Shown one piece after another: positions 3,560 to 47,111 of a stretch of DNA of 64,000 nt. A model generated the notes under the pieces. It was given only the letters and a program-made list of their open reading frames with translations, was not told the origin of the DNA and did no database searches. Within the stretch, counting starts at the first letter, position 1. Each line of letters opens with the position of its first letter. This DNA is from a bacterium (GTDB lineage: Bacteria; UBA8248). The DNA lies in contig CBDBBI010000010.1 in assembly GCA_965202625.1 (NCBI GenBank), positions 2,816,001 through 2,880,000 of the forward strand, read 5' to 3'. The position numbers and the translations under genes were made by a program.

Positions 3560-4690
3560 ATGTTCCCAAGCCATCGTATCGGAACGCCGGTGCGCCGGAT
3601 CGAAACGCCCGCCCTGCTGATCGATCTCGACGTCATGGAGGAGAACCTCGCTTTGATGGCGGAGCGCCTGGAGGGGGCGAACGTCCGGCTTCGCGCCCAC
3701 GCGAAGACGCACAAGAGTCCCTGGATCGCCAGAAAACAGATTGCGCTCGGCGCAGTGGGCGTGTGCTGTCAGAAGGTGAGCGAGGCCGAGGTGATGATAG
3801 CGGGCGGGGTGGAGGACGTGCTCGTGAGCAGCGAGGTCACTGCGGCCTCCAAACTGGGCCGCCTGGCCGCCCTCGCGCGCCACGCGCGGCTGATGGTGGT
3901 GGTGGATCATCCCGAGGGCGCGCGAATGCTCTCCGAGGCGATGGCGGCGGCGGGCGGAGAGATTGGCGTGCTCATCGACGTGGACGTGGGGCAGGGGCGC
4001 TGCGGAGTGGCGCCGGGCGCTGCGGCGGCAGAGCTGGCCCGGCGCGTGGACGCGATGCGGGGGCTCGACTTGCGTGGAATCCAAGCCTATCAGGGCGCGG
4101 CCCAGCACGTGGACGGGTTCGTCGAGCGGCGCGCGGTCTACGCCGAGGCGATAGGGCTGATGGGGGAAACTATCGCCGCGTTCGACGCCGCTGGACTTCC
4201 GACGGACGTCAGGAGCGGCGGCGGTACGGGTTCCTGGCGATGGGACGCGGAATCAGGCGCGCTGAACGAGCTGCAGGCGGGCAGCTATCTTTTCATGGAC
4301 TCCCACTACGGCAGCATCGGCGGCGAGAGATCGGACGTCTATGACGACTTCAGGCCCAGCCTGTTCGTGTTGACGAGCGTGGTGAGCGCGCCCGCGCCCG
4401 ATCGCGTGGTGATGGACGCCGGCCACAAGGCGCTCACCTCCGACAGCGGGCTCGCCCCCTGCCTCGAACTCGAAGGCGCCGCCCACGCAAGAGCCTCCGA
4501 TGAGCACGGCATCCTCGAACTCTCCCCATCCTCCAGGCGTCCTGAAATTGGCGAGACGCTCCTGTTCCAGCCCAGTCACTGCGACCCGACGATCAACCTC
4601 TACGACGCCTATCACGGAATTCGGGGGGGGATGGAGGAGGGCGTCCTGGAGGCGGTGATCCCCGTGGCGGCGCGCGGTTGCGTCTGGTAG
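3560..4690 (+). CDS. DSD1-family PLP-dependent enzyme (D-threonine/3-hydroxy-D-aspartate aldolase-like)
   Basis: TPALLIDLD, HAKTHK (PLP Lys), GGGTG, ELQAGSY, SDEHG and PSHCDPTIN. ATG at 3560 follows GGAGG. Confidence 0.88.
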   Translation: MFPSHRIGTPVRRIETPALLIDLDVMEENLALMAERLEGANVRLRAHAKTHKSPWIARKQIALGAVGVCCQKVSEAEVMIAGGVEDVLVSSEVTAASKLGRLAALARHARLMVVVDHPEGARMLSEAMAAAGGEIGVLIDVDVGQGRCGVAPGAAAAELARRVDAMRGLDLRGIQAYQGAAQHVDGFVERRAVYAEAIGLMGETIAAFDAAGLPTDVRSGGGTGSWRWDAESGALNELQAGSYLFMDSHYGSIGGERSDVYDDFRPSLFVLTSVVSAPAPDRVVMDAGHKALTSDSGLAPCLELEGAAHARASDEHGILELSPSSRRPEIGETLLFQPSHCDPTINLYDAYHGIRGGMEEGVLEAVIPVAARGCVW

Positions 4691-4762
4691 GGCCGCACCG
4701 TCTTTTTCCGGGCGGGACTGCGCACGACGAGGTGAAGAGCGGGCGGCTTTATGCGTCCTGGG

Positions 4763-5284
4763 TTATGGCTTTCCAAACGTGGCGACCCTGTCCACGCGGC
4801 ACTCGAACAGGACGCGCTTCTCTTCGATGACGGGGTCCCGAAGCGCGTAGGGCGGATCCTGCCCCGTGTATTTCGTCCAGATGCGGTCGAGCTGCTCGCC
4901 GGCTCTCTCTCCGCCCGGCTCCCCTTCTCGGACCTCGTTGACGACCGTGCATTTGACGCTCATCCAGTGATAGGGGTTCTCGGGGTTGACGAGGAGGATC
5001 GTGAGGCGCGGGTTCGCTCTTATCCATCCGCATTTTGCCCGGTGGGCGGCGGTGTTCACCAGAATCGTGTCGCCCTCGTAGTCGAACCACATGGGCGTCA
5101 GGTTCACCCGTCCGTCCGGTCCCGTCAGTCCCAGCGTGACCGTGATCGGCATGTCCAGCAGTTGCTTGTAGATGGGGTCCAGCGCAGACAGGCCGCTCGC
5201 CTTTTTTCTTTCCCCCACGGCGAACTGACCCTCTTGCAGACCCTCGGATACGTCCTTGAACCGGGCTACGGTGAATTCCGCCAT
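4763..5284 (-). CDS. Pyridoxamine 5'-phosphate oxidase-like split-barrel protein (possibly F420-dependent)
   Basis: PDGRVNLTPMWF, NTAAHRAK and NPRLTILLVNPENPY. Start MAEF follows GGAGG. Confidence 0.75.
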   Translation of the reverse strand: MAEFTVARFKDVSEGLQEGQFAVGERKKASGLSALDPIYKQLLDMPITVTLGLTGPDGRVNLTPMWFDYEGDTILVNTAAHRAKCGWIRANPRLTILLVNPENPYHWMSVKCTVVNEVREGEPGGERAGEQLDRIWTKYTGQDPPYALRDPVIEEKRVLFECRVDRVATFGKP

Positions 5285-5362
5285 CGCGCGCCTCCTCCCC
5301 ATGAGAAAAAGTGAATTTCGGAAAGGCTAGCAAAGGGGATGCGGCGCGACAAGGGGAGTCGC

Positions 5363-6220
5363 CTATCTTGCCGCGCGCCTCGCGCAGCGAAAGCCCACGA
5401 TCTTCCACCGTATGAGGCCATCAAGCCGAAAGCGCTCGGCACTCCTCAAATACGCGGGGCCCTCGCGCCAGGAGCCCCCTCGAATGGCGTGCATGAACCC
5501 CGAGGGCGGTCCCTGCGGGTCCTTGAGGGGCGCTTTCCGGTAGTAGAACTCGCCCCAGAAATCGTGGGTCCACTCCCAGACGCCGCCCGCCATGGAGCGC
5601 GCCCCATAGGGCGATTCGCCGCCCGGCTTCCCGCCCACGGGCTGCGGGCGGCCGTGGCCGACGAGGGCGCGATCAAAGGAATCGCCCCAGGGGTAGCGTC
5701 TGGCGTCAACGCCCCTCGCCGCTTTTTCCCATTCCGCTTCCGTGGGCAGGCGCTTGCCCGCCCAGGCGCAGTAGGTTTTGGCGTCGAACCAGGAGACGCC
5801 CACGACCGGAAGGCCGGGCCGGTGGAGGTTGCTGTCTCCGGCGTATTTTGATTTCCGGTGTCCCGTGGCTTTCCGAAACCTCTCCCAATGGAAAACAGAT
5901 ACCTCGTCCCGGTCTATCCAGAACGCGGAGATGAACACCTTTCGCACGGGAAGCTCCTGGGGGTTCCCGTCGTATGACCCCTGGGTGAAGAGGCCGCCTG
6001 GCACGAATGCCATCCAGCGGCCGTCTTTTGTCCCAGGAGGCTTTTGGACGAGGGGAACGGGGGACGGGGAGAGGGCGATCTCATGCCTGCGCGCGCGCCG
6101 CTCTCCCTCTGCCGCGGAGGGTCTCGCTTTCATGGGAGTCAGGAAAGAAGCGTTCCCCTGCCCGGAAGCCGTGAGCAGAACGAGGACGAGGGCGAGGAGC
6201 GAAAATCCGAGGCGCGCCAC
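5363..6220 (-). CDS. Exported FGE-sulfatase/SUMF1-fold protein lacking the FGE catalytic cysteines
   Basis: PVVGVSWFDA, RLPTEAEWEKAARG, YPWG, GVWEW, RGGSW and GFRC motifs. Hydrophobic N-terminus from GTG 6220 (the ORF track starts at 6301). Confidence 0.85.
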   Translation of the reverse strand: MARLGFSLLALVLVLLTASGQGNASFLTPMKARPSAAEGERRARRHEIALSPSPVPLVQKPPGTKDGRWMAFVPGGLFTQGSYDGNPQELPVRKVFISAFWIDRDEVSVFHWERFRKATGHRKSKYAGDSNLHRPGLPVVGVSWFDAKTYCAWAGKRLPTEAEWEKAARGVDARRYPWGDSFDRALVGHGRPQPVGGKPGGESPYGARSMAGGVWEWTHDFWGEFYYRKAPLKDPQGPPSGFMHAIRGGSWREGPAYLRSAERFRLDGLIRWKIVGFRCARRAAR

Positions 6221-6227
6221 TTCCCGT

Positions 6228-7028
6228 CTATTTTCTCTTTCTGGGCCTTGCGTTGATGAACGCTTCTCGAACGTATTGGACGACCGACCAGATTTCCGCA
6301 TCGCTCAGCACGTGGCCATAAGCCTTCATGAAGTCAAATTTCTTCATCTCGGTGACGTCAATGCGGCCGAGCTTGATGAGCCAGAACAGGAACGCATCGT
6401 CGAAGCGCGCCATCTGTTCCTTGAGGCGATAGTCCATCGGCGGCGGCTGAATGTGGCTGATGAACGGCTTTTCGGGGTCCTGATCCTCCACCGGACGCGC
6501 ACCGTTGCCGGCACCGCGCGCGCCGTGGCATTGCGCGCAGGCGTCCATGAAGATTTCCTTCGTCTCCTCATCCTTCGTCTGGTCGCCGCTCGTGAAGCCG
6601 CGCTCCCATTGGATGAGCTTGCGAATCTGATCGTCCTCAAGCACCTCGCCGAACGAGGGCATGGCCGTGGGAACGCCGTTGTCGATCTTGTGCCCCTTCA
6701 TCCTGTTTTTGAGGACGTTCATCTTGCCGAATTTCACGACGGTGAAGATGTAGTCGTCCGTCATGCGCTTCATGTAGGGGCTGATGAACACCTGGGGTCT
6801 GGGCCTTGAGCTCCGCCAGCTCGGCCCCTTGCCGTCTCCTTTGATGCCGTGGCAGGAGAAGCAGATTTCCTCATAGATTTCCTTGCCCAGCCAGTAGTCT
6901 CCGCCATGCTGCCTTGCCGTATCAGGACGGGGAGGCGCCTTTTTGGCCGCAAGAGAGCCTGCCGGAGCGATGAGGCTCCACGTGAGCGTCAAGACGATCC
7001 AGCAGCCTCTACTTTTCAGAATGTCCAC
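6228..7028 (-). CDS. Periplasmic diheme c-type cytochrome
   Basis: Signal peptide. Two CxxCH motifs (CFSCH, CAQCH), each with a downstream Met ligand motif (AMPSFG, FMKAYG). Confidence 0.88.
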   Translation of the reverse strand: MDILKSRGCWIVLTLTWSLIAPAGSLAAKKAPPRPDTARQHGGDYWLGKEIYEEICFSCHGIKGDGKGPSWRSSRPRPQVFISPYMKRMTDDYIFTVVKFGKMNVLKNRMKGHKIDNGVPTAMPSFGEVLEDDQIRKLIQWERGFTSGDQTKDEETKEIFMDACAQCHGARGAGNGARPVEDQDPEKPFISHIQPPPMDYRLKEQMARFDDAFLFWLIKLGRIDVTEMKKFDFMKAYGHVLSDAEIWSVVQYVREAFINARPRKRK

Positions 7029-7099
7029 TTCCCCCTCGGCCTTTCTGATGGCCGCTCGACGCCAGAGGAACGCATTCAGAATTCAGCGCGCCGCACCGC

Positions 7100-8143
7100 T
7101 CATTTCGCGCACGGGTTAGCGGCACAAGGGTTTTTCGCCGCGCAAGGATTCGCGGCACACGGGTTCTTTGCTGCACAGGGGTTCTTTGCCGCGCATGGAT
7201 TGCCTGCGCAAGGGTTGGCGGCACAAGGGTTTTTCGCTGCGCATGGGTTCTTGGCAGCGCAAGGGTTAGCCGCACATGGGTTTTTCGCTGCGCACGGATT
7301 CGCGGCACACGGGTTCTTTGCTGCACATGGGTTTTTCGCTGCACAGGGGTTAGCGGCACACGGGTTCTTTGCTGCACAGGGGTTAGCGGCACACGGGTTC
7401 TTTGTTGCACATGGGTTCTTTGCCGCGCATGGATTACCTGCGCAAGGGTTGGCGGCACAAGGGTTTTTCGCCGCGCAAGGGTTCTTTGCTGCACAGGGGT
7501 TAGCGGCACACGGATTTGCCGCGCATGGATTCGCGGCGCAAGGGTTTTTCGCTGCGCACGGATTCGCAGCGCAGGGGTTCGGGGCGGCACACGGATTTGG
7601 GGCGCATGGATTGGCGCCTCCGCTAGGCCTTCGCACCGTCTTCATGAACGCCTTGCGCTTCGCCTCCCAGTCTATCATGCGCTTGTATCGCTTCGGGGAA
7701 AGCGAAACCACGTAGGCTTCCAGGTCTTTATACTTTTGGGAATAGGGGTCCATGGGCGGGTTGCCGATGAACGCCGTCGCGCAAAGGTCGTTGAACTGCC
7801 CGACGCTGACCACCTGGCTCGCTGGACTCAGGCGCGGGAAGTGATCCGCCGCTCCGATGAGGGTGGGAATGGGGACCGGATTCCGAAAACCCATCACGTC
7901 CACCGCCGTGCCGCCGATCGTGCGGCCCCGAGGGTGGCAGCCCACGCAGCCGACGCTCCTGAATAATTTTTTGCCGCGCGCGACGGAATCCTTCACGCTG
8001 TGGTCATATTGCTGCGTATAGAAAAAGGGCGGAGGCGTGATGGTTGCTTTTTTCTCGCCCGTCTCCTGCGCATGGGAGGCTGCGGGAGTCGCCAGCCCGA
8101 AAGCTGCGGCGAAGATGATGGCCCACTTTGCTGTTTTCATCAC
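7100..8143 (-). CDS. Exported monoheme cytochrome c (TsdA/SoxA-like domain) with a C-terminal tail of about 31 NPCxx(K) repeats
   Basis: Signal peptide ending ASHA. CVGCH is followed by AADHFPR..VVSV..NDLC..PMDPYS..DLEAYV and then the repeat tail. Confidence 0.85.
   Translation of the reverse strand: MMKTAKWAIIFAAAFGLATPAASHAQETGEKKATITPPPFFYTQQYDHSVKDSVARGKKLFRSVGCVGCHPRGRTIGGTAVDVMGFRNPVPIPTLIGAADHFPRLSPASQVVSVGQFNDLCATAFIGNPPMDPYSQKYKDLEAYVVSLSPKRYKRMIDWEAKRKAFMKTVRRPSGGANPCAPNPCAAPNPCAANPCAAKNPCAANPCAANPCAANPCAAKNPCAAKNPCAANPCAGNPCAAKNPCATKNPCAANPCAAKNPCAANPCAAKNPCAAKNPCAANPCAAKNPCAANPCAAKNPCAAKNPCAANPCAGNPCAAKNPCAAKNPCAANPCAAKNPCAANPCAK
7103..7615 (-). repeat. Coding tandem repeat, 15/18-bp units encoding NPCAA/NPCAAK
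   Basis: Visible in the sequence; synonymous codons vary between units. Confidence 0.95.
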
Positions 8144-8223
8144 GTTCTCCTTGCTGAGAGTCTCGACCCCTGGGAATATGAAAAATCAGGCTCCACGACG
8201 CCCGCGTGTCGTTTTACGCGTCT

Positions 8224-9308
8224 CTATCCACCCTGGCAGGGATTCTTTGCCGCACAGGGATTTCCGGCGCACGGATTCTTGGCCGCACAAGGGTTAGCCG
8301 CACATGGGTTCTTGGCCGCGCAAGGGTTAGCCGCACATGGGTTCTTGGCCGCGCAAGGGTTAGCCGCACATGGGTTCTTGGCCGCGCAAGGGTTCGCCGC
8401 ACATGGGTTTTTCGCTGCGCAGGGATTCTTGGCCGCGCACGGGTTAGCGGCACACGGATTCTTGGCCGCACAAGGGTTAGCCGCGCACGGGTTCTTGGCC
8501 GCGCAAGGATTCTTGCCAGCGCACGGGTTTCCCGCACACGGATTTGCCGCGCAAGGATTGCTCCCCGCACACGGGTTTCCAGCGCATGGATTCTTCGCTG
8601 TCCTCGCACAGGGATTTCCAGCACATGGGTTGGCGCCACAGGGATTTCCGCCGCCGCCTGCGAGGGCATAGACGAAATTTGCCCTGTAGGAGCCGCCCCT
8701 GGCCTGGGTGGAGACGTTCACCCGGGTTCCGGCCTTGATGGAGCTGACGCTGATCGGCTTGGGTCCAAGATGGGCCAGCGTTGTTTTCACGACGTGGACG
8801 CTGAGGTTCTCGCCGGCGGACGTGCGCACACCAAGGTAGCCTTTTTGGTAGCCGGTAACTTCGCCGACGAGCATGACGCCCTCGCTCCTCGCGCGAACGC
8901 CGCCGCCCCCACAGGGATTCGCCGCGCACGGGTTCGCTGCGCACGGATTTTTGGCCGCGCATGGATTTCCGCACACGGATTCTTGGCCGTACATGGGTTC
9001 GCCGCGCACGGATTCTTGGCGGCGCATGGGTTAGCGGCACATGGGTTCTTGGCAGCGCAAGGGTTCGCCGCACAAGGATTCTTGGCAGCGCAAGGGTTAG
9101 CCGCACACGGATTCTTGGCCGTACATGGGTTCGCCGCACAAGGATTCTTGGCAGCGCATGGGTTAGCCGCACATGGATTCTTTGCCGCGCATGGGTTAGC
9201 CGCGCATGGATTCTTTGCCGCGCATGGGTTCGCCGCCTCAGCCGGCGTCGCCCAGACGAAAGCGGCCAAAAGCGCGCTGAACAGGATGAACCTTGAGTTT
9301 CTCCACAT
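8224..9308 (-). CDS. Exported Cys-rich NPC-repeat protein (about 20 repeats, small beta-barrel-like domain, about 25 repeats); 1-nt frameshift near 8968
   Basis: ATG at 9308 follows GGAGG; signal peptide ends AEA. ORFs 8787..9458 and 8224..9027 join if GCG GA AAT is read as GCG GGA AAT. The central VMLVGEVTG..GTRVNV domain is DUF5666/OB-like. Confidence 0.8.
8230..9235 (-). repeat. Two blocks of NPC coding repeats (about 8230-8650 and 8908-9235)
   Basis: Visible in the sequence. Confidence 0.93.
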
Positions 9309-9537
9309 GGTTCTTCCTCCTTTGGGGGATGGATGCGATGCGAAACGTTTATGGTTCGTCAAAATTTGGGTTTCCTCGGTCGCAGTTGTTCGCGACGGTA
9401 TGCGTCGGGCACTCTCCGCGCAAAAGTTTGTGCGTGTCTCGTCCATATAATCCACCATATGACAGAAAACAAGGGCGAGGCTCTGGTTATTCCAGCCGGT
9501 GCTGGAATCCGGCGGAATTCTATCAGAATCGGGCGGG

Positions 9538-9960
9538 TTAGGGGAGCAGGCGCATTCCCAAAAAAGAGACGAAAAGGGAGAGGAAAATCGCCAGAAACCC
9601 GCAATAGGAGTGAATTTGTCGCCAGTCGTCGTTTTTCAGGTTTTTTCTGAGTTTTCGGCCCAGGTAGGCCGTCGCCCACAACAAGCATAGAGCCAGAGTG
9701 GCGAAATAGGAATGGGCCGTATCGTAATTGGGAGATTCCAGGGCGAAGCGCATTCCGCCCAGGCCGAGGGCGTAGCCCGCCGAGAAAAGAGCGGTGAACC
9801 ACCGCCCGAGCCTCATATGCAGACGGGCGATTCGCACCCTCTCGGGGCCCGTCCCCCTTCTTCCGGCGCGTCTGACCCGCAGACCGCTCGCCAGGGTGAT
9901 GAGGCCCAACGAGAGGGCGGCGATTTGAAAAGCCGGATGAAGATACGCCCCGAAATTCAT
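9538..9960 (-). CDS. Four-TM, four-His membrane protein (DUF4079/cytochrome b561-like)
   Basis: YLHP, RLHMRLG, AHSYFA and QIHSYCG place one His per predicted helix. Confidence 0.7.
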   Translation of the reverse strand: MNFGAYLHPAFQIAALSLGLITLASGLRVRRAGRRGTGPERVRIARLHMRLGRWFTALFSAGYALGLGGMRFALESPNYDTAHSYFATLALCLLWATAYLGRKLRKNLKNDDWRQIHSYCGFLAIFLSLFVSFLGMRLLP

Positions 9961-10173
9961 GCGCCGCCGTTCCAGAGAGTCGTATGTGTGAATGTGAGAC
10001 GCGCTTTTATCATCTTGGCCTTCGCCCTCCGCCTTGTCGAGAGGGAGGCGCAAGGCTTAGAATGGCGCGAACGCGCCTATGGCCTTCGGACAGGGGGTGA
10101 AGGGCGATGCCGCCCCCATGCGAGGGCTTCGTGGCTTGGAAAAGGTGGATCATTCTTCTTAAAGGAGGAAATC

Positions 10174-10877
10174 ATGGCCGTCATCGTATATGTTCTGACC
10201 AACCCGGCAATGTCCGGCCTCGTCAAGATCGGCAAGACTTCAAAGGACGATGTTCAGGCGAGGATGAGTCAACTGCATACGACAGGCGTTCCTCTTCCTT
10301 TCGAGTGCAGGTTCGCTATTGAGGTTGAGGACGAACAAGGGCCCGGGCTTGAACGGGCACTCCGGGATCGACGCCTTCGGTCCAGAGCAGACTGAGTCCT
10401 TCGAGAGAGTTCTTCGCAATAAAGACTTCCCAGGTGGTGGAGCTTCTCAAAATCTGGCCGGGCGCCAAAGACGTTACGCCAGAGGTCGAACGTGATTTGG
10501 ACAAGAATTTATCTTCCGAAGTCAGGGAGGCTACGAGGAAATTCAGGGAGGACAGGGAGGACAGGGAGGCTACGAGGAAATTCAGGAAAGCTCGCAGACC
10601 AAATTTGAATTTTAAGATGATGGGAATTCCAGAGGGATCAAAACTGGTGTCCACGCATGAGGATCGCGAGGAAGCGACCGTGATTGGGGAGCAGAAAAGT
10701 GTCGTTTCGGGGCGAGGAAATGTATCTGACGGCCGCAACCCAGATGGCCTGGAATCTGGATTACGGGGTTACCCCTTCTTCTGTACTGGACTTTCGAAGG
10801 CAGAAATCTCTCGGAAATTTACTCGGAGACGTATCCGCAGAGTATCGGCGAGCGGCGGCGACGAGGAGGAGGACTAG
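10174..10877 (+). pseudogene. GIY-YIG (T5orf172-like) nuclease gene with several frameshifts
   Basis: AAGGAGG SD. VYVLTNPAMSGLVKIGKT..TGVPLPFEC continues in other frames as REFF, RRPNLNF..MGIPEGS and YWTFEGRNLSEIY. Shifts lie near 10365, 10690 and 10780. Confidence 0.75.
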
Positions 10878-10961
10878 GCCGAGAAGCCACCGCGCATATC
10901 TCTTGCGGAAGGCGAAAGGGAATTATACAGGCAAGGGCGACCATATACCCGTTCAGGAGGG

Positions 10962-11759
10962 ATGATGAACGTCGAGGAGGTGCGCGCCATCGCGCGCGGC
11001 AGCAAGGTGTTTGACTTGGGCGTCGCGCTGTTCCCCGGAATGCCCCACGTACCCCTGCACGGCCCGTTCGGGTATTCCATGATCAGGGAGCACGGCGATT
11101 TCATGTATGCGGGCGGGGCCTGCGCCGCGGTGGACACGTTCTTCTGTACCGGACACACGGGCACGCACGTCGACGCACTCGGCCACGTCGCCCAGGACAT
11201 GCAGCTCCACGGCGGGGTGGACGCCTCCTCCTCGCAAAGCAAGACGGAGGGACTCAAGGTCCACGGCATCGAGAGCGTAGCGCCCGTGGTGCGGCGCGGC
11301 GTGATGCTCGACGTGGCGGCCCACTTGAAAAAAGACGTCCTTGAAGCGGGGCGTCCCGTCACGAGGGACGAACTCCAGGCGGCGGCGACCGCCCAGGGGG
11401 TAGAGGTGGAGGAGGGCGACGTCGTCCTGGTGCGCACCGCGCACATGCGCCACTGGCCGGGCCGGAATTATTATTTCCAGAAAGGGGGCGTCTCCGGAAT
11501 CGACCTCGACGCGGCGAGATGGCTCTCTGCGAAGGGCGTCTTCATGGTGGGGAGCGATACGTTCGCGGTGGAAGTGCTGCCCGCCCCCTCCCTGCCGGTC
11601 CACCGCCATCTGCTGGTGGACTGCGGAATCCACTTGCTTGAGGTGGCGGTTCTGGAGGAGTTGAGCCAAGCGCGGATTCATGAGTTTCTATTCGTCTGTC
11701 TGCCGCTCAAGATACGGGGCGGTACCGGCTCGCCCGTTCGTCCCGTCGCGATCTTCTAG
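10962..11759 (+). CDS. Cyclase-family metal hydrolase (kynurenine formamidase-like)
   Basis: HTGTHVDALGH, VGSD, VHRHLL and GGTGSPVRP. Confidence 0.88.
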   Translation: MMNVEEVRAIARGSKVFDLGVALFPGMPHVPLHGPFGYSMIREHGDFMYAGGACAAVDTFFCTGHTGTHVDALGHVAQDMQLHGGVDASSSQSKTEGLKVHGIESVAPVVRRGVMLDVAAHLKKDVLEAGRPVTRDELQAAATAQGVEVEEGDVVLVRTAHMRHWPGRNYYFQKGGVSGIDLDAARWLSAKGVFMVGSDTFAVEVLPAPSLPVHRHLLVDCGIHLLEVAVLEELSQARIHEFLFVCLPLKIRGGTGSPVRPVAIF

Positions 11760-11792: not shown

Positions 11793-13040
11793 ATGCCCCG
11801 CGTGTTGGAGGACAAGGCGAAGGCGCTTCTGGCGGATGCGGGCGTGCGCGTCCCCCGGGGCCGCTCGGTGCGGACGCCGGCCGAGGCGGCGGAGGCGGCG
11901 CGCTCGGTTGGCGGCCCCGTGGTGGTGAAGGCCCTCGTTCCCGTGGGAAAACGCGGCAAGGCGGGCGCCATCCTTTCGGCGGATACGCCGGAGGAGGCGG
12001 CCCAGGCGGCCCGGAACCTTCTGGGCGGCGTGGTGCATCACTTTCCCGTTGAGCGGCTTTTGGTGGAGGAGAGGGTCAGGAGCCTCCAGGAATGGTATTT
12101 TTCCATCTCTTTTGACAGCGCCTCGCGCGGTCCGCTCATCATGTTCAGCACCGAGGGCGGCGTTGAGATAGAAGCGCTCGCAGAGAGAAGCCCGGACGCG
12201 CTCAAACGACTGGAAGTCGATATTCTGGAGGGCCTGAGCGAGGAGGCGTGCGTCTCTTTTCTGCGCGCCTGCGGGGTGAGCGGGGATGCGCTGTTTCGCG
12301 CCGCACTCCTCATTCATGCCGGCTACGCGCTGTTTCGCCGCGTGGAGGCGCGGCTTCTGGAAATCAATCCGCTCATCCTCGGCGATGGGGACGAACCCGT
12401 CGCCGCCGCATGCGTCCTTGATCTGGATGCGGACGCGCTGTTTCGCCGCCCTGAGCGCAAGGCGCTGCTGGATGAGACGTCGACGGACGGCTGGCGTCCA
12501 CCCACGCCCCTGGAGGCGCGCGTTCGCGCGATAGACGCCAGCGTCCCGCCGCTCCACACGGTGCGCTTCAGGGAGATTGCGGGCGGAGAGATCGCCCTTC
12601 TCTGGAGCGGAGGCGGAGGCGGACTGTATCTCCTCGACACGATGGCGCGTCTGGGGGGTAAGCCTGCGACGGCGTTTGACGTCACGCCGGGCCCCCTGGA
12701 GGAGAAATACTACGAGATCACAAAAGAGATTCTGGGTATGCCGAACCTCAAGGGAGTGCTCGCCGGAAGCAACATCACGAGTTTCTCGCGCGTGCAGCTC
12801 AAGGTTCGCGCCATCGTTCGCGCGGTGGAGGAGACGGGGGTCGATCTCGCCGAATTTCCCTTCATCGTCCGCTTCGCCGGCGCGGGCGGAGAGGAAGCGC
12901 GGGAGATCGCCCGAACGTGCCCAGGCCTGCAATATCTGGGCGATGATGCGACGCTTGAAGAGGCGGCCGAGCGCATCGTCGCCCAGGTCGAGGCGGTGAA
13001 GCGCGGCGTGCCCTGGATGGACGCGGGAGGTGCGCGTTGA
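11793..13040 (+). CDS. ADP-forming acyl-CoA synthetase beta subunit (SucC/citryl-CoA-ligase-like, divergent)
   Basis: ATP-grasp VVVKA..GKRGKAG, LLVEE, STEGGVEIE and EINPL. SGGGGG replaces NGAG. Confidence 0.82.
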   Translation: MPRVLEDKAKALLADAGVRVPRGRSVRTPAEAAEAARSVGGPVVVKALVPVGKRGKAGAILSADTPEEAAQAARNLLGGVVHHFPVERLLVEERVRSLQEWYFSISFDSASRGPLIMFSTEGGVEIEALAERSPDALKRLEVDILEGLSEEACVSFLRACGVSGDALFRAALLIHAGYALFRRVEARLLEINPLILGDGDEPVAAACVLDLDADALFRRPERKALLDETSTDGWRPPTPLEARVRAIDASVPPLHTVRFREIAGGEIALLWSGGGGGLYLLDTMARLGGKPATAFDVTPGPLEEKYYEITKEILGMPNLKGVLAGSNITSFSRVQLKVRAIVRAVEETGVDLAEFPFIVRFAGAGGEEAREIARTCPGLQYLGDDATLEEAAERIVAQVEAVKRGVPWMDAGGAR

Positions 13041-15745: not shown

Positions 15746-15860
15746 GGAGCGCGGCCGGGAGGGGGGATAAGCAGCAAAATTCAATCGCAAGCTTTGGTAT
15801 CGGTAGAGTGGATACCCGCGCATGTGGCATTTTCTCATTTCTTGTCGGGGGTATGTTATC

Positions 15861-16880
15861 GTGGCTCTTTGGGTAGTGCGGGCGGGAAAAGACGGGGAGC
15901 GAGAGCAATTTGCGCTTGAGGAGAACGTCGTGGTGGTCGGATCGCCCATGATGTTGGATCTATCGGGTTTTGAGAAGGAGCAATTTTCTGAAATCTGGTC
16001 TGAAATTCATCCCGATGCCAGTCCAGGTACAATCGCGAGTTGGACGGGTCAGCTATGGCGGTTTGTTCGAGTGATCAAGGAGGGAGACATTGTCGCGTTG
16101 CCGTTGAAAACGCGCTCAGAGGTCGCGTTTGGACGAATTACGGGTACCTACCGATATGATTCCAACGCGCCTGATGGTGCGCGGCACCAGCGACCGGTCC
16201 AATGGATGAACACGAGTGTCGCCCGCATCAATATCGACCAGGACCTGCGGCGTTCTTTTGGTGGGTTAAAGACGGTATTCGCCGTCGCTCGGAACGATGC
16301 GGAGGCGCGGATCGAGTCTCTTCTCGAAGGCAAGTCGAAGTCCGCATTCGTTTCTCCACAAGAGGGCGAAGAAGAAGACGGAGATACAGTATCCTTTGAT
16401 ATGCATCGTGAGGCCGAAGACCAAATCATTGATTTCATCGGTCGGAATTTCAAAGGGCACGATTTCGCCCGTTTGGTTGCGGGGGTGTTGACGGCTCAGG
16501 GCTATAAAGTCCAAACCTCGCCGCCAGGGCCTGATGGAGGGGTCGACATCGTCGCGGGACGTGGGCCAATGGGCTTTGAAGCCCCACGCCTTTGCGTTCA
16601 AGTGAAATCCGGGGATGCGCAGGTGGGCGTAACGGTCTTGCGTGAACTTCAAGGCGTAATGAAAAATTATCGCGCCCAGCAAGGGCTGATCGTTTCTTGG
16701 AGTGGCTTCAAGCAGACCGTCTACAAGGAGGCGCGACAGTTATTTTTTGAGATGCGGTTGTGGGATCAATCTGCTCTCGTGAAAGCGATCCAGGAAGTCT
16801 ATGAAAAATTACCCGATCAACTACAGGCTGAGCTACCGCTCAAGCGGACTTGGTTGCTTGTTGGAGCAGAAGGTGCCTAG
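15861..16880 (+). CDS. Mrr-like (type IV) restriction endonuclease
   Basis: LWVVRAG N-terminus and the GPDGGVDI..VQVKS Mrr catalytic motif. GC is lower than in the flanks. Confidence 0.85.
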   Translation: MALWVVRAGKDGEREQFALEENVVVVGSPMMLDLSGFEKEQFSEIWSEIHPDASPGTIASWTGQLWRFVRVIKEGDIVALPLKTRSEVAFGRITGTYRYDSNAPDGARHQRPVQWMNTSVARINIDQDLRRSFGGLKTVFAVARNDAEARIESLLEGKSKSAFVSPQEGEEEDGDTVSFDMHREAEDQIIDFIGRNFKGHDFARLVAGVLTAQGYKVQTSPPGPDGGVDIVAGRGPMGFEAPRLCVQVKSGDAQVGVTVLRELQGVMKNYRAQQGLIVSWSGFKQTVYKEARQLFFEMRLWDQSALVKAIQEVYEKLPDQLQAELPLKRTWLLVGAEGA

Positions 16881-25295: not shown

Positions 25296-26918
25296 ATGAC
25301 CGAGTTGAATTTCAAGGGTAAGGAATTTGTCTATAACCACCATCTCGCCGTGCCGTTCCATCCCCTGGAGCCGCACCCGGACAAGGGAATCGGTGAGGTG
25401 GCCCTGGACGGTAACCTGATCGTTCACGGCGACAATCTGAAAGCGCTGAAGGCGCTCATGCCGACGCACGCCGGAAAAATCAACTGCATCTACATCGACC
25501 CGCCCTACAACACCGGCAAAGAGGGCTGGTGCTACAACGACAACGTCAACTCCCCGATGATCAAGGAGTGGTTCTCCGAACAACCCGTCGACTCCGATGA
25601 CGGCCTCCGGCACGACAAGTGGTGCGCCATGATGTGGCCGAGACTGCGGTTGCTTCATGAGCTTCTTGCTGAGAACGGCGTGATTTTCATATCCATTGAC
25701 GACAACGAGCAACATCATTTGCGAATGATGATGGATGAGATTTTCGGGGAGGAGAATTTTGTCGAGACTTTTATTTGGAAAAAGAAGGGAGGCGCCAGTA
25801 ATACCGAAACGATAGTTGGCGATATTGTAGAAAACATCATAATGTTCGCCAAGGACATATCCAGCTTGGCAGTGAATCGAAGAGTCATTCAATCGGCCAA
25901 TTACCCGAATCGTGATAGCAGGGGATCTTTTCGGTTTCAATCACTTACTAAAACCGATGAGGGGATGTATAGGCGCGATACAATGAAGTTTGGGATTCCT
26001 GTCCCAGGCACTGGCGAACTTGCTTACCCTCCCCAAAAGCAGAGATGGACATCAGGGAAAGTAAATATGATGGATATGTTGCAGGCTGACTTACTCCACT
26101 TTGAGAGGTCGGATCACGGCTATACGGTGCGACGAAAAGATTATTTTAATGAAACTGACCCTCAAACCGGTGTGTACCTTAATCTGTTTCTTGAGTGTGG
26201 CAGTCTCAGGACGGCCAAGAACGAACTTACGCGCATTGAGTTCGGGCGTGAGGATTTTGACACACCCAAACCTACTACTTTGCTCACTCAGTTGCTCCGC
26301 ATCGCAACCGGCCCGGACTCTATCGTCCTGGACTCCTTCGCCGGATCGGGCACGACGGCCCACGCCGTGCTCGCATTGAATAAGGAAGACGGCGGCAATC
26401 GTAAATTCATTCTCGTGGAATGCGAAGACTACGCCGACAGCATCACCGCCGAGCGGGTGCGGCGGGTCATTAAAGGCGTCCCGAAGGCAAAGGACGAATC
26501 CCTGCGAGAAGGTCTGGGCGGTTCTTTCACATATTGCACTCTTGGGCGTCCGGTTGAGATGGACGCCATTCTCCGGGGCGAGTCTCTGCCCGCGTATGAT
26601 CAACTCGGCGCGCTGGTGTTTCACCTGGCGACGAACCGGCTGCTCGACCGGGAGGGTATCGATCAGGAGTCGAATTACCTCGGCGAAGCGGACGGGAGAC
26701 ACCTCTGGCTGATCTACCGGGACGATATTTGCTGGCTCAAATCGCCGGAGGCCGCCTTCACGCTTTCCTTCGCCCGTGAAATTGTCGAGAATAAGCGGCC
26801 AGGCGCGCATCATCTGGTGTTCGCGGCCGCGCGGTTCGTGTCGCAAAGGGTATTAACGCAAGAAAAATTGCAAGTCGAGTTCGCGCCCTTGCCCTTCGCG
26901 CTCTACCGCGTCGGGTAG
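25296..26918 (+). CDS. mod: Type III restriction-modification methyltransferase (Mod)
   Basis: IYIDPPYNTG, TPKP and VLDSFAGSGTT in beta-class order, with a low-GC central target-recognition region. Confidence 0.92.
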   Translation: MTELNFKGKEFVYNHHLAVPFHPLEPHPDKGIGEVALDGNLIVHGDNLKALKALMPTHAGKINCIYIDPPYNTGKEGWCYNDNVNSPMIKEWFSEQPVDSDDGLRHDKWCAMMWPRLRLLHELLAENGVIFISIDDNEQHHLRMMMDEIFGEENFVETFIWKKKGGASNTETIVGDIVENIIMFAKDISSLAVNRRVIQSANYPNRDSRGSFRFQSLTKTDEGMYRRDTMKFGIPVPGTGELAYPPQKQRWTSGKVNMMDMLQADLLHFERSDHGYTVRRKDYFNETDPQTGVYLNLFLECGSLRTAKNELTRIEFGREDFDTPKPTTLLTQLLRIATGPDSIVLDSFAGSGTTAHAVLALNKEDGGNRKFILVECEDYADSITAERVRRVIKGVPKAKDESLREGLGGSFTYCTLGRPVEMDAILRGESLPAYDQLGALVFHLATNRLLDREGIDQESNYLGEADGRHLWLIYRDDICWLKSPEAAFTLSFAREIVENKRPGAHHLVFAAARFVSQRVLTQEKLQVEFAPLPFALYRVG

Positions 26919-26931
26919 GAGTGAAGGAACG

Positions 26932-29550
26932 ATGCGCCGACTCGATTATCAGGATCGCGTTCTGACGAGGCTGGATGCCTACCTGGAAATCCTCGTCAAG
27001 GAAAAGAAAAACGCCGATAAGGTATCGAAGATCGTCGCCGAAAATCCGGGCGTTGACATTCCTGTCCCCGACTTCACGGAAACGACGTGGGAAAAGATGC
27101 GAGAAGCGGGCGGACTGCCGCCTTCTCGGTCCGGCATCCCCTTTTCGAGGCGGCGGGACGAAATGGAAAGGCCCGTGCCGAACATTGTGATGAAAGTTCC
27201 CACCGGCGGCGGCAAAACCTTTTTGGCCGTCAACGCCGTGTCGCGGGTTATGGGAAGCTATCTCAGCAAGAGAGTCGGCTTCGTCCTCTGGATCGTCCCG
27301 AACGAGGCGATTTACGCGCAGACGCTCAAACGCTTCAGGACCAGGAGCGATCCCTATCGCCAGATGCTGGATGCTGCGGGGGCCGGCGGTGTCCGCATCA
27401 TGGAAAAGGGCGACCGGCTGGATACGCGCGACGTGGAAGAGAATCTCTGCGTCATGCTGTTGATGCTGCAATCCGCCAATCGTGAGAGCAAGGAATCTTT
27501 ACGGATGTTCAGGGATCGGGGCGACGTTCACGGGTTCACTCCGGATCAAGGGGATCAACTCGCGCATAAAAGGATGCTGGAGAAGGTTCCGAATCTGGAT
27601 CGCTATGATCTGGCGGAAAGCCCGCTCATGTGGCCGATGATCAAGGATTCGCTGGGCAACGCGCTTCGGATCGTCCGTCCGGTCGTGGTTCTGGACGAAG
27701 GCCACAAAGCGACTTCCCAACTCGCTCTGGATACCCTCTACGGCTTCAACCCCTGTTTCGTTCTGGAACTTACGGCGACGCCGAAGGACGTGTATGCTCG
27801 CGGCGGCAGGAATCCGCGCCCCGCACGGTATGCGAACGTGCTGGTGGACGTCACGGGAGTGGAGCTGGACCGCGAGGGCATGATCAAGATGCCTCTCCAT
27901 CTCGACCCGCTACAGGATACCGACTGGAAAAACACGCTGAATGCCGCGCTGGAAAGACTTCGCGACTTGGAGGGCGAAGCGGAGGCGTTTCGCGCCGACA
28001 GCAACTGTTATATCCGGCCCATCCTACTGGTGCAGGTCGAGCGCACGGGCGGGGATCAGCTGAAAGCGGGCCTCATTCACGCGGAGGACGTGAAGGAGTG
28101 GTTGCTGACCGCCGGTTTCGATGAGGCGGAAATCGTTGTCAAGACAGCGGAGCGCAACGATCTGAATCAGCCCGAGAATCAGGACCTGCTCTCGCCGATG
28201 AACCGGGTGCGCGTCATCATCACGCGCCAGGCGTTGCAGGAAGGGTGGGACTGCCCCTTCGCCTATATCCTGTGTGCCCTTGCGGCAAGCTCCAACTCAA
28301 GCGCGATGACCCAGCTCGTCGGGCGCATCTTGCGCCAGCCGCACGCGATGAAAACGGGAATAGAATCGCTCGACGGGTGCTACGTCATCACCCATCACGC
28401 ATCGACGGCTGAGGTGGTGAAATCGGTGAAGGAGGGTCTGGAAAGGGATGGGCTGGGCGACCTCGTCCCGGAAATTGTCGGGGGCGGAGACAATGCAAAT
28501 GGCGGCGGTTTGCGGCGAATCGACCGGCGTGAGGGATTCGCCAAAACAGAAATCCATCTGCCCCGCGTCCTGATCGTCGATGAGGAAGAAGTGCGCGACC
28601 TCGACTATGAGACCGACGTCGCTTCCCCGATTGACTGGCGCGGCTTCGATCCTTCCACCATCGCCTGGGGGATTTCCGAGAACGTCCGGCCGGTGGAAGG
28701 ACAGTTGGTGGTGTTTCAAATCAAGGAGAAACCGGAAGCCTCGATCGTTCATGAAGCCGTCGCTTCGAGCGTCGAGACGATGACTTTTCATCCTGCTTAC
28801 GCGGTCCGCATGATCTCCGATATTGTGCCGAACGTGTTCGTCGGTCAGGAAATCGTAGGCGCATTCGTCAAGGCCCTCGAAAAACGCGGTTTCAGCGAGG
28901 AAAGGCTGGGCGGCTTGAGCGGGCTGCTCATTGAGGAGCTGCGCAAGGGACTGGAAAGGGAGCGCGGCGTCAGGGCGGAGAGGATGTTTCGTCGAAAGGT
29001 CAAGGACGGAGAAATCCAGTTCCGCCTTCGGGCGGACGGTCGCAACTGGCGAATGCCTTTCTACATCGACACGTCTGAGCCGGAAGGGGCGGATCAACTG
29101 AACGGAGCGGATGGCGGGCCATTGAGGCGCAGTCTGTTCTCGCCGGTATACAAAGCGGAATTGAATGGAGAAGAGCGGGCCGTCGCGGTATATCTCGACA
29201 AGGAGAAAGCCCTCTCGTGGTGGCATCGCAACGCCGCGCGCTCGCAATATGGTCTTCAGGGATGGAAGCGGCACAGGATATACCCGGACTTTATATTCGC
29301 GCAGACAATGGCGGACGATAAGTCCAGGTTCATCGTCCTTGAAACCAAGGGCGACTATCTCGACAATCTGGACACGGAGTATAAACGCTGCCTGCTCGCT
29401 CTTATGTCCGAGAATTTCTCATGGAACAATACCCTCCGGGCCGGAGAGCTTGAGCTGGTTCGGGAGAATGGCGAGATAGTCAAGTGCGCGCTGGTGCTGA
29501 TGAGTGAATGGCAAACAAATCTGCCGGAGCTCTTGGCTTCCAATACGTGA
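26932..29550 (+). CDS. res: Type III restriction enzyme Res subunit (SF2 helicase plus PD-(D/E)XK nuclease)
   Basis: PTGGGKT, DEGH, TAT, EGWD, QLVGRILR and YPDF..ETKG. Confidence 0.9.
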   Translation: MRRLDYQDRVLTRLDAYLEILVKEKKNADKVSKIVAENPGVDIPVPDFTETTWEKMREAGGLPPSRSGIPFSRRRDEMERPVPNIVMKVPTGGGKTFLAVNAVSRVMGSYLSKRVGFVLWIVPNEAIYAQTLKRFRTRSDPYRQMLDAAGAGGVRIMEKGDRLDTRDVEENLCVMLLMLQSANRESKESLRMFRDRGDVHGFTPDQGDQLAHKRMLEKVPNLDRYDLAESPLMWPMIKDSLGNALRIVRPVVVLDEGHKATSQLALDTLYGFNPCFVLELTATPKDVYARGGRNPRPARYANVLVDVTGVELDREGMIKMPLHLDPLQDTDWKNTLNAALERLRDLEGEAEAFRADSNCYIRPILLVQVERTGGDQLKAGLIHAEDVKEWLLTAGFDEAEIVVKTAERNDLNQPENQDLLSPMNRVRVIITRQALQEGWDCPFAYILCALAASSNSSAMTQLVGRILRQPHAMKTGIESLDGCYVITHHASTAEVVKSVKEGLERDGLGDLVPEIVGGGDNANGGGLRRIDRREGFAKTEIHLPRVLIVDEEEVRDLDYETDVASPIDWRGFDPSTIAWGISENVRPVEGQLVVFQIKEKPEASIVHEAVASSVETMTFHPAYAVRMISDIVPNVFVGQEIVGAFVKALEKRGFSEERLGGLSGLLIEELRKGLERERGVRAERMFRRKVKDGEIQFRLRADGRNWRMPFYIDTSEPEGADQLNGADGGPLRRSLFSPVYKAELNGEERAVAVYLDKEKALSWWHRNAARSQYGLQGWKRHRIYPDFIFAQTMADDKSRFIVLETKGDYLDNLDTEYKRCLLALMSENFSWNNTLRAGELELVRENGEIVKCALVLMSEWQTNLPELLASNT

Positions 29551-46700: not shown

Positions 46701-47111
46701 CGAGAGGCGGACGACCTTGCCCGCGCGCTCGCCGCCCCGATAGAGTGCCCATTCGTTGCCGTCGGTGTAGAGAATGTTCGGTATGCGGGAGAAGCGCCTG
46801 AATTGTTCGCGGTTGCGGCCTCTGAAGCGGTTTTTGACGGCGCCGACGCCGGGGGCCTTGAGCTCGACGTATCCGGCGAGCAGCCCGCTCTTGTGGACGG
46901 CGTAATCGGGACGGCCGAGACGCCCGGGCAAAGGCGTCTCACCGGTGCAGACGACCTCCCATCCCAGAGTGGCCGCCGTGCCCGCCATAAGGTTCTCGAA
47001 GGGGGCGCGCAACTGCTCTTCCGGCTCGCCGTGCGTCATTTGCCCCGTTTTCTCCGTCACGGCGGAGGCGAAATTTCGCAGGGGTTCATAGATTGTCGCG
47101 CTTTCGTTCAT
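43701..47111 (-). CDS. Single-chain restriction-modification enzyme (N6-adenine methyltransferase with type ISP-like C-terminal specificity domain, no helicase)
   Basis: N-terminal PD..ELK nuclease, GVYYTP, LDPAVGTGT, GNPPY and YRSFDRQW. Confidence 0.88.
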   Translation of the reverse strand: MNESATIYEPLRNFASAVTEKTGQMTHGEPEEQLRAPFENLMAGTAATLGWEVVCTGETPLPGRLGRPDYAVHKSGLLAGYVELKAPGVGAVKNRFRGRNREQFRRFSRIPNILYTDGNEWALYRGGERAGKVVRLSGDVATDGESAATAENALNLAFLLRDFLLWDPSALLLAPALSPNLSGEIDFKGFADLLAPLCRMLRDDVADALKNPASPLVRLAEDWRQILFPDASNAQFADAYAQTVAFALLLGRSEGADPLTLPNAEAALAEKHSLLSRALQILTDPEARAEISASLDLLLRVIGVAPPNAPGASRQDPWLYFYEDFLAAYDPKLRKDAGVYYTPVEVVRAQTRLIDDLLVNRLRKPLGFADSGVVTLDPAVGTGTYLLGVIEHALGRVEVEQGAGAVAGQASTLAGNLYGFELMVGPYAVSELRISRALRARGATLPADGTRIYLTDTLESPNAEPPQMPFVLQPIAKQHEKALALKSNVPVIVCLGNPPYDRHDAANTENEDALSRAGGWVRFGDPLSPGYRVTDDRGKERALKTARARLDYRRRRAILKDFLGPAVAAGHGVHLKNLYNLYVYFWRWALWKVFEQDKDKGPGVVSFISASSYLDGAAFCGMREHMRRLCDEIWILDLGGEGRGARRDENVFAIQTPVAIAVAFRSKEAKMDAPARVRYARIEGRRKEKLAALNAVKDFASVEWRDCPNDWLAPFRPAGEGAYFTWPLLTDLMPWQCSGTKFSRTWPISPDAQTLQNRWRQLLVSDDRAKAFRESQDRKVSRPYNLLPPEDGRHQPISALSESIPAKRIERYSYRSFDRQWIIADNRVCDRPSPNLWRTHDERQVYLTSLLSHPLGNGPAITACSWIPDLHYFRGSYGGKDTIPLYRSADALEANVLPGLLDRLGEEYGRPVAPEDFAAYLYGALAQPAFTARFAGELETLELRAPITKNAALFEKVRKVGARLLWLHTYGERLVPEGAFRGQVPRGAARCVKPISGDADGYPEAFFYRDATRTLRIGAGEFSPVAPEVYGFEVSGLKPVQSWLKYRMKTGAGRKSSPLDDVRPPCWTSQFTTELLELLWVLEATVAGYPAQEETLDAVLESECFRADELPPVPNDARKPPTERAAAHTLSLEISD

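Follow-up and report, generated by a model that had tools for sequence, protein, structure and literature searches.

Asn-Pro-Cys repeat arms linked to a divergent SoxA/TsdA-type cytochrome c: a possible periplasmic thiol-redox relay

In this work, five genes were analysed at positions 5363-9960 of a 64,000-nucleotide stretch of DNA (hereafter the window, meaning the whole stretch) from a bacterium of the GTDB lineage UBA8248 (contig CBDBBI010000010.1 of assembly GCA_965202625.1, positions 2,816,001 to 2,880,000). A preliminary description, made from the sequence alone, had singled them out as a candidate periplasmic redox system with repeats of the tripeptide Asn-Pro-Cys (NPC). The five genes are co-oriented, as described, and all lie on the minus strand. 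They encode a DUF4079 membrane protein, a barrel protein with an NPC arm on either side (NPC_A), a monohaem cytochrome c with an NPC tail, a dihaem cytochrome c, and an FGE-fold protein. Judged by its sequence, the haem domain of the monohaem cytochrome is a divergent SoxA/TsdA-type domain. One invariant Cys of this domain falls on the presumed ligand Cys of TsdA and SoxA, and relatives of other lineages have an in-frame TGA codon in its place. Moreover, the NPC repeats, the cytochrome and its dihaem partner are held together across many phyla.

We hypothesize that the locus forms a periplasmic thiol-redox relay, in which a haem makes or breaks S-S bonds on thiol arms and the arms are a regenerable pool of exposed thiols. 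This is the reading we favour, tentatively and at somewhat less than an even chance. The exported cytochrome would carry a SoxA/TsdA-type haem with Cys121 as its sixth ligand, and its substrates would be the cysteines of its own 31-Cys tail and of both arms of the OB-barrel protein. It would swap electrons with the dihaem cytochrome c, and in the genus of the window the chain might continue through the four-His DUF4079 protein, probably with two b-type haems, to the membrane or cytoplasm. The presumed role, and the presumed direction of electrons, is that about 76 exposed thiols would be kept reduced, would soak up thiol-reactive oxidants or electrophiles, and would then be regenerated. The relay is favoured because relatives show thioredoxin-type neighbours, exchanges of Cys with selenocysteine (Sec) and of CxxC with UxxC, and sigma and anti-sigma genes.

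The cytochrome haem domain and the codon of its putative ligand

The cytochrome of the window has a single CVGCH motif, in which C66 and H70 are invariant in all alignments. C69 is invariant in two of four alignments, and in the other two one relative (G023, loci L034/L042) reads CVGGH, which may reflect attachment through one Cys, a gene in decay or a sequencing error. A family profile of 20 members, searched against 1.84 billion representatives, matched 202 proteins at E ≤ 1e-3, 29 at E ≤ 1e-10 and 4 at E ≤ 1e-30. Remote matches of this profile were scanned by Pfam, and all nine reached the cut-off of PF21342 (SoxA/TsdA). With remote Cys-form homologues included, a diverse profile of 37 members kept only G20, C29, C32, H33, G36, P66 and C84 as invariant positions, and it matched the solved structures of SoxA (1h31, E 3.1e-14) and TsdA (4wq7, E 1.4e-11). 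According to the printed profile alignment, from which the TsdA residue positions were counted, the His of CxxCH lies on TsdA His53. The invariant Cys (C121 of the window protein) lies on TsdA Cys96, which we take to be a haem ligand, and on the Cys of 'MINAC' in SoxA. The Cys-ligated haem of the preliminary description is thus a fair inference at the sequence level, because the invariant Cys aligns with the haem-ligating Cys of both TsdA and SoxA. The accessible part of a study on TsdA describes its action via an S-thiosulfonate adduct on the Cys ligand (PMC4423706).

Two genomes from a different family within the class (G029 and G030) carry an in-frame TGA where this Cys would be encoded, and the conserved frame continues beyond it. 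A locus scan with one genome per species gave 37 loci, with a bias towards Cys forms since one of its two search patterns contained Cys. Fifteen of these loci belong to the window's own clade, under record titles of Nitrospinota, Nitrospinaceae or 'bacterium' metagenome-assembled genomes, and all of them have Cys. The remaining 22, which are all the loci outside this clade, carry TGA at the ligand codon (L054-L075; below, the TGA-type loci). Their titles include Rokuibacteriota, Methylomirabilota/Methylomirabilia, 'Deltaproteobacteria', Tectomicrobia, Binatia, Acidiferrales, Syntrophobacteraceae and some Nitrospinota. As L054 is on the same contig as the G029 locus, these 22 and G030 make 23 distinct TGA loci. 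Furthermore, nine of 53 fetched protein representatives stop exactly before the TGA position and three others begin just after it; such split records are as gene callers would leave them.

The genes for Sec insertion are at hand, with selB over the cut-off and tRNA-Sec in all five genomes tested, the window genome included. From 17 to 31 nt after the TGA, the aligned loci share a 5-bp stem with the invariant loop CGUGA, and pairing is kept in 110 of 110 cells of the alignment. One pair is CG in 13 sequences and UA in 9, with both changes at synonymous third positions. Its covariation score was reached by 0 of 500 shuffles, and the covarying pair may represent one single inherited change. The loop has G and U at positions 23 and 24, presumably as in the fdhF element of E. 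coli. Rfam gave no match on the Sec-type loci L032 and L033, SECIS families included, and an outer stem (columns 9-13 with 33-37) was dropped, as by eye it is not kept across loci. Folding of single 70-nt stretches after the TGA gave z-scores of only -1.0 and -1.3, and it is the alignment that supports the hairpin. Because the TGA is in frame and followed by a covarying hairpin, it probably encodes Sec at the ligand position of the relatives. The Cys/Sec pair marks a redox-active residue, and the exchange points to a selenoprotein family cut in two by gene callers.

The thioredoxin-type neighbours of relatives show a similar exchange. Both TlpA-like genes that were read (L056 6333-6947 and L064 7220-7834) encode a W-U-P-x-C active site whose U is an in-frame TGA; each lies between the dihaem and NPC-barrel genes and is a second candidate selenoprotein of its locus. 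The G029 cytochrome itself (L033 7789-8382) has a second in-frame TGA just before a short NPC tail, for which a second Sec, a genuine stop or a recent mutation are all conceivable. Literature searches found no report of Sec at a SoxA/TsdA-type ligand position; a preprint on P450 without the Cys ligand mentions selenocysteine often in its accessible text (PMC11703216). The table of a 2026 review of prokaryotic selenoproteins, in its 'cytochrome' passages, has ExtKL, the GSU2204 family and the octahaem tetrathionate-reductase type, and no monohaem SoxA/TsdA-like family (PMC13188914).

Repeat arms, partner proteins and gene linkage

On recount, the barrel protein has 16 + 29 = 45 NPC units and the cytochrome 31, which agrees with the approximate numbers given earlier, and the four His of the membrane protein were likewise correct. 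A degenerate NPCAAKNPCA pattern matched the 3.09-Mb genome 34 times, with all 34 matches at the locus and on the same strand, and its reversed control gave 0, so the repeat is not due to chance. Synonymous codons differ between repeat units while the peptide stays, so the peptide is maintained and not the DNA alone. Tandem Repeats Finder gave periods of 33 and 18 on the repeat DNA, and neither Pfam nor NCBIfam has a model for the repeat. The cysteines of the arms are spaced x4/x5, not as CxC or CxxC. The window has NPCAAK and the genomes G029 and G030 have NPCNPCAAKK, with N-P-C kept as the spacers change, and the number of NPC units per protein ranges from 3 to 44. In the model of the full-length cytochrome, residues 175-347 have pLDDT < 50 nearly throughout and no assigned secondary structure. 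A haem-regulatory 'CP' motif was considered for the repeat and rejected, as the order is Pro-Cys. In genome G009, loss of the arms seems to be under way: the NPC_A homologue (L023 7308-7952) keeps its barrel with decayed repeats (4 NPC, with NQSAK, NPGS and NPRA variants), and the cytochrome tail has 3 NPC only.

The arms are widespread. With the cytochrome tail as the query, 1021 proteins were found at E ≤ 0.001 among 8000 scored candidates. Among the 120 NPC-tail proteins listed, PF21342 occurs in 45, cytochrome P460 in 13, YHS in 10 and DM13 in 2. Some NPC proteins bear LysM or peptidoglycan-binding domains, and one NPC barrel protein is labelled CusF in its source record. Of 31 fetched NPC proteins with no Pfam domain, 25 have the NPC-barrel-NPC plan and 6 are P460-like. 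The carriers of NPC tails include the Proteobacteria Motiliproteus, Zobellella and Halomonas.

The preliminary description had NPC_A as one secreted protein with about 45 repeats around a small barrel. This architecture held, with the correction that the reading frame is split in the assembly (8787-9458 and 8224-9027), where one base is missing at 8970/8971. An extra G after 8970 is present in contigs of the read runs X1 (depth 3/3) and X7, an RNA run (7.12/7.12), and restores the frame. The site is covered by only two of the four read runs, and X1 is possibly the source sample of the genome and hence not fully independent. In relatives, NPC_A is whole and has 299-369 residues. Since the extra G restores the frame and relatives carry the whole gene, the break is most likely an assembly error or a strain variant, and the gene was treated as intact in the organism. 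The barrel between the arms was likewise borne out, as AlphaFold models an OB-type fold (pLDDT 83.2, pTM 0.72). Foldseek found no structure at E ≤ 1e-3, the nearest being RPA, RMI and CusF (2qcp, E 5.5e-3, TM 0.56/0.66). Among 34 aligned barrels, no His, Met, Trp or Cys is conserved, and only S67 and Y81 are invariant. A word-based search with the barrel gave four close matches only, the wider family having come through the repeat search, and an Atlas feature search returned DUF5666 at 0.86, as a lead only.

The dihaem protein has two CxxCH motifs and matches Cytochrome_CBB3 (E 6.7e-22) and also Cytochrom_C in Pfam. Co-folding of the haem domain with the dihaem protein reached a score of 0.38 (best control 0.00), with contact agreement of at least 94% between runs and partner pLDDT of at least 81. 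The mark used was reached by 116 of 157 solved complexes and by 2 of 215 mismatched pairs; at scores up to 0.60 it was reached by 18 of the 157 and by both passing mismatches. The model lends weak support to a contact between the two cytochromes, and likeness to solved SoxAX-type complexes may contribute to the score. The membrane protein matches DUF4079 (E 4e-12, 47 bits against a cut-off of 31.4) and is under the cut-off of both b561 models in Pfam (Cytochrom_B561 22.3 bits vs 23, the other 18.2 vs 30.1). It has four predicted helices, each preceded by a His (H8, H48, H83 and H117) that is invariant in 14 of 14 homologues. By the positive-inside rule, applied by eye, H8 and H83 would lie on the periplasmic side and H48 and H117 on the cytoplasmic side, the arrangement expected of two b-type haems stacked across the membrane. 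It is a candidate transmembrane electron carrier with two b-type haems, an assignment that agrees with the membrane b-type haem protein proposed before, the invariant His being paired at opposite faces. DUF4079 is, however, confined to the genus and family of the window. In the literature searched, DUF4079 was named in a single genome paper.

The FGE-fold protein is assigned firmly to its fold (PF03781 E 7e-50; human FGE chains E about 1e-30). Aligned to human FGE, it has no Cys at either catalytic position, which we take to be C336 and C341, and the stretch reads GGSWREGPAYL...RSAERF; because both catalytic Cys are absent, it is not classed as an FGE. The only invariant Cys among 13 linked homologues are C178 and C306, and the window genome has six FGE-fold paralogues vs two sulfatase genes. 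The fold given in the preliminary description is therefore right. Its place in the system is less well supported: the catalytic Cys are missing, and the gene is linked in just 5-6 of the 20 loci of close relatives and 10 of the 22 TGA-type loci.

The haem domain is present in 27 of the 41 genomes searched (window genome included), among them 18 of 22 of the same genus. Of 22 strong matches in close relatives, 20 loci were fetched. In this set, the dihaem gene follows the cytochrome in 18 loci (not in G001 and G007) and DUF4079 is present in 18 (not in G029 and G030), an NPC_A-type gene is present in 8, and the FGE-fold gene is intact in 5 and in fragments in one more. Where NPC_A is missing, the cytochrome itself opens with an NPC_A-like signal peptide and N-terminal NPC units. 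In the 22 TGA-type loci, the dihaem gene comes after the cytochrome in 21, the contig ending in the remaining one. A separate NPC gene accompanies 16 of them, and in the remaining 6 the cytochrome itself bears NPC repeats as a tail; each of the 8 tail-less cytochromes is adjoined by an NPC gene. NPC repeats are present at every locus of both sets. A BNR/Sortilin-type propeller is encoded directly upstream in 18 of the 22 (in the other 4, the contig begins at the cytochrome), and a pentahaem cytochrome, an FGE-fold protein and a TlpA-like thioredoxin in 10 each. In L064, the pentahaem cytochrome is fused to an AhpC/TSA-redoxin domain and a P460 gene is also in the locus, and zf-HC2 anti-sigma and ECF sigma genes are among the neighbours in L061 and L055. 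The linkage of NPC genes to partners that the preliminary description proposed was therefore found: the cytochrome/dihaem/NPC association holds across phyla, and the lack of conserved linkage that would have refuted the proposal was not observed.

About 500 kb away in the window genome, a second locus (C10:2312620-2316805; L076 3620-7805) encodes an exported TlpA-like protein (WCPLC), an FGE-fold paralogue, DUF1499, and a homologue of the pentahaem cytochrome (47% identity, E 8e-102). In other phyla, most of these genes sit inside the NPC-cytochrome locus. The component set thus seems to be split over two loci in the window genome.

Gene order, expression and surroundings of the locus

The features of the locus are collected in the table below. 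Just past the DUF4079 stop, the upstream regions align at the box TGATAGAAT, whose T-G-A-T-A and A-A columns do not vary among the 6 regions aligned. Because TGATAGAAT is conserved in all six genomes, this alignment suggests a separate promoter for the NPC_A, cytochrome and dihaem genes, and DUF4079 would seemingly be its own transcription unit. A generic promoter scan of 4600-11000 listed one promoter-like site (1.6 expected), which was not the TGATAGAAT site, and a terminator scan of the same region gave 9 terminator-like sites vs 7.8 expected by chance. In the metatranscriptome contigs of one study, the genes for the dihaem protein, the cytochrome and the barrel protein are all represented, and the two junctions between them are spanned (X8 7959-8279 and X7 6791-7130). 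The FGE-fold gene (5300-6265) and DUF4079 (9486-10100) have no RNA contig in X7 or X8, although contigs cannot prove absence. In one X8 RNA contig, the cytochrome gene contains an additional T following position 7966 (depth 6.2/11.3); this base is absent from the DNA runs X1 and X5 and is probably a contig error or a minor variant.

Table. Features of the NPC locus in the window; export of the proteins was judged by eye from their N-termini.
Feature	Position	Strand	Details
DUF4079 membrane protein	9538-9960	minus	140 aa, Pfam DUF4079
TGATAGAAT, extended -10-like box just past the DUF4079 stop	9517-9525	minus	upstream-region alignment
NPC_A (NPC-OB barrel-NPC protein)	8224-9308	minus	signal-like N-terminus, 16 NPC, ~85-aa beta-barrel, 29 NPC
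Monohaem cytochrome c with NPC tail	7100-8143	minus	347 aa, signal-like N-terminus, haem domain residues ~38-175
CVGCH haem-attachment motif, cytochrome residues 66-70	7934-7948	minus	translation and alignment
Cys121 codon of the cytochrome	7781-7783	minus	aligns with TsdA Cys96; TGA in 23 loci of other lineages
NPC repeat tail of the cytochrome, residues 176-347	7103-7618	minus	31 NPC, predicted disordered
Dihaem cytochrome c	6228-7028	minus	266 aa, two CxxCH
FGE-fold protein	5363-6301	minus	312 aa, without catalytic Cys pair

Plus-strand open reading frames over the repeats (6849-7715 and 8206-9450, with 'GFFAAQGF' repeats) were rejected as mirror images of the real minus-strand genes. Between DUF4079 and a cyclase gene lies a T5orf172 (GIY-YIG-like) gene (10174-10877, plus strand) in two frames (ORFs 9712-10392 and 10434-10874); this stretch has a lower G+C (0.54-0.57) and looks like a broken mobile or insertion remnant. 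Further on, 11793-13040 (plus strand) encodes an ATP-grasp protein like the succinyl-CoA synthetase beta chain or ATP-citrate lyase, with a weak citrate-binding match (E 1.2e-4), which hints at a reductive TCA-type enzyme. The remaining window has many defence and mobile genes (15822-16877, 25296-29547, 43701-47108 and 54427-58936), namely an Mrr-type nuclease, a DNA methylase with a ResIII helicase, a Type ISP restriction enzyme, a piece of an IS1595-type transposase, and two FRG-domain/TPR proteins.

Alternative readings and likeness to known systems

Several observations weigh against the thiol-redox relay or leave it less specific. The haem domain of the window scores only 12.7 bits (E 0.13) against PF21342, below the cut-off of 27, and a search of its own genome with the PF21342 model was negative. 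The AlphaFold model of the full-length cytochrome is poor (pLDDT 48.7) and cannot place Cys121 at the haem. DUF4079 was not matched in the 22 TGA-type loci, and because of this absence it is not part of the core. The window locus itself has no thioredoxin, sigma or anti-sigma gene, so that the thiol-redox neighbours come from relatives and from the locus about 500 kb off. The RNA contigs reveal neither the strand nor a single transcript. Moreover, the arms also occur on YHS, DM13 and P460 domains and on a CusF-like barrel, and PF21342 homologues without NPC arms often bear Met-rich low-complexity N-terminal segments (seen by eye in P0156, P0158, P0162, P0166 and others), as if Met arms and Cys arms were alternatives. 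Both of these facts fit metal binding equally well.

A buffer for soft metals was also weighed. Like an extended metallothionein of the periplasm, the arms would bind Cu(I) or else Hg, Ag or As(III), and the cytochromes would reduce Cu(II) or keep the ligand thiols in their reduced state. The company of the arms suits it, with YHS in 10 and DM13 in 2 of the 120 listed NPC-tail proteins, one barrel named CusF, CusF among the nearest solved folds of the OB barrel (2qcp, E 5.5e-3), and homologous cytochromes with Met-rich arms replacing the NPC arms. The barrel, however, lacks any conserved His, Met, Trp or Cys, and neither the window locus nor the annotated related loci have a metal transporter, chaperone or sensor. 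Simple chelation would not need a reactive Cys/Sec ligand and a UxxC thioredoxin, and the Cys spacing in the arms is x4/x5. We consider metal buffering unlikely. A sulfur carrier would use the arms like many SoxY arms, to which the cytochrome attaches (oxidatively) or from which it releases (reductively) the sulfur of thiosulfate, sulfide or polysulfide. Electrons would pass via the dihaem cytochrome to or from the respiratory chain, and sulfane-sulfur storage, detoxification or energy gain would be the outcome. The SoxA/TsdA domain does exactly such chemistry, as far as the available text of one source goes (PMC4423706), and polysulfide reduction at a Cys-ligated haem is described for a multihaem selenoprotein of Geobacter in the accessible part of another (PMC13510729). 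Exchange of Cys and Sec at a reactive ligand also suits S-S and Se-S chemistry. Nevertheless, SoxY (TIGR04488) has 0 matches in the 99.69%-complete window genome, and the annotated loci contain no sulfur-oxidation or sulfur-transport gene, their conserved neighbours being thioredoxin-like, BNR, FGE-fold and pentahaem proteins. We consider a sulfur carrier unlikely.

Ferric haem-NO reacts with thiolates, and in nitrite- or NO-handling bacteria the haem could hand NO+ equivalents to the arm thiols as S-nitrosothiols, which would later be reduced. Such a trap for reactive nitrogen would match carriers in lineages titled Nitrospinota and Methylomirabilota and the arms found on cytochrome P460 (13 of the 120 listed rows and 6 of the 31 fetched no-Pfam proteins, besides the P460 gene in L064). 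On the other hand, no observation points to nitrogen oxides in particular, the carriers include many ordinary Proteobacteria (such as Motiliproteus, Zobellella and Halomonas), and nitrite or NO reductase is absent from the annotated loci, all of which leaves this trap very improbable. Equally far-fetched is a purely structural role, in which the arms would be a disulfide-crosslinked envelope matrix or spacers and the cytochromes functionally unconnected neighbours. The repeats are of low complexity and predicted to be disordered, their number varies from 3 to 44 per protein and decays in G009, and some NPC proteins bear LysM or peptidoglycan-binding domains, as a matrix or spacer might. Yet N-P-C is kept while spacers and codons change, the linkage of the cytochrome family to the dihaem gene holds across phyla, and the arms are fused to redox or metal domains, not to enzymes in general.

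If the thiol-redox relay is true, many phyla share an unrecognised periplasmic system in which a SoxA/TsdA-type haem acts on multi-cysteine arms and not on a small sulfur anion. It would mean a new kind of envelope redox buffer or carrier alongside Dsb, Sox and Msr and a function for the NPC tail of over a thousand unannotated proteins, and it would explain why the same arms occur on cytochrome P460, YHS and DM13 domains. The system is testable with expressed proteins and with the culturable proteobacterial carriers. The haem domain, thioredoxin and cytochromes are of known families. Literature searches found no published pathway of this architecture, in keeping with the preliminary description, and the NPC arms, the whole gene set and the TGA at the ligand position appear undescribed. 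That SoxA/TsdA-type chemistry on protein cysteine makes a categorically new system is rather improbable. We give a similarly low probability to the arms being a protein-bound store of redox equivalents and sulfur, with dozens of cysteines that would pass between the thiol, persulfide and disulfide states. This store would be charged and discharged by a c-type haem with a Cys ligand in the window genome and, in at least 23 loci of other phyla, a Sec ligand. If so, the periplasm would possess a buffer of a categorically new kind, connected to the respiratory chain, together with the first natural selenolate-ligated c-type haem and a UxxC thioredoxin as its partner.

The locus was also compared with solved and described systems. 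SoxAX-SoxYZ (1h31, 2c1d, 3oa8) resembles it in three ways: its c-haem domain belongs to the superfamily of the window cytochrome and keeps the ligand-position Cys, its haem protein is paired with a second cytochrome, and, as we read it, the chemistry takes place at a cysteine borne by a flexible arm. However, SoxA has two haem domains and the window cytochrome one, the SoxY arm has one GGCGG cysteine and the NPC arms 31-45 NPC cysteines, and the annotated loci show no Sox gene, their neighbours being OB barrel, FGE-fold, BNR, TlpA-like and pentahaem proteins. TsdB is the dihaem partner of TsdA. The locus likewise encodes a separate dihaem cytochrome next door, and its cytochrome shares with TsdA (4wq7, 4v2k) the Cys on Cys96 and the His on His53. 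TsdA itself is dihaem, whereas the window cytochrome is monohaem, and the dihaem partner of the window matches cbb3/CcoP-type domains, with no thiosulfate context found in its surroundings. TsdA chemistry works in both directions, as the accessible portion of one paper has it (PMC6879331). The MccSep/ExtKL protein of Geobacter sulfurreducens is a multihaem selenoprotein that reduces polysulfide at a Cys-ligated haem, with Sec essential for S-S cleavage, in the part of the source available (PMC13510729). There, by the same portion of that source, the protein has five haems and Sec is a second residue near the Cys ligand, whereas here TGA replaces the presumed ligand Cys itself in relatives, within a SoxA/TsdA-like domain.

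Among thiol:disulfide reductases of the TlpA/ResA/CcmG type, a TlpA-like gene belongs to 10 of 22 related loci and an exported WCPLC protein to the second locus of the window genome, and none to the window locus. The catalytic Cys pair of FGE binds copper. Human SUMF1 (1y1e, 2aft) has the fold in common with the window protein, which lacks the catalytic Cys, and the arms read NPC and not CxPxR. The metal site of CusF consists of His, two Met and Trp. CusF (2qcp, 1zeq, 2vb2) is alike in being a small OB-type barrel (TM 0.56-0.73) at a weak match (E 5.5e-3), whereas the NPC_A barrel has no conserved metal ligand. Only in concept, the proposed relay is akin to the MrpX-MsrP/MsrQ oxidant sink, in which an exported sacrificial protein rich in one residue is paired with a periplasmic reductase that draws its electrons from a haem b membrane protein. 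That sink is built on methionine and a molybdoenzyme where the relay would use cysteine and a haem enzyme.

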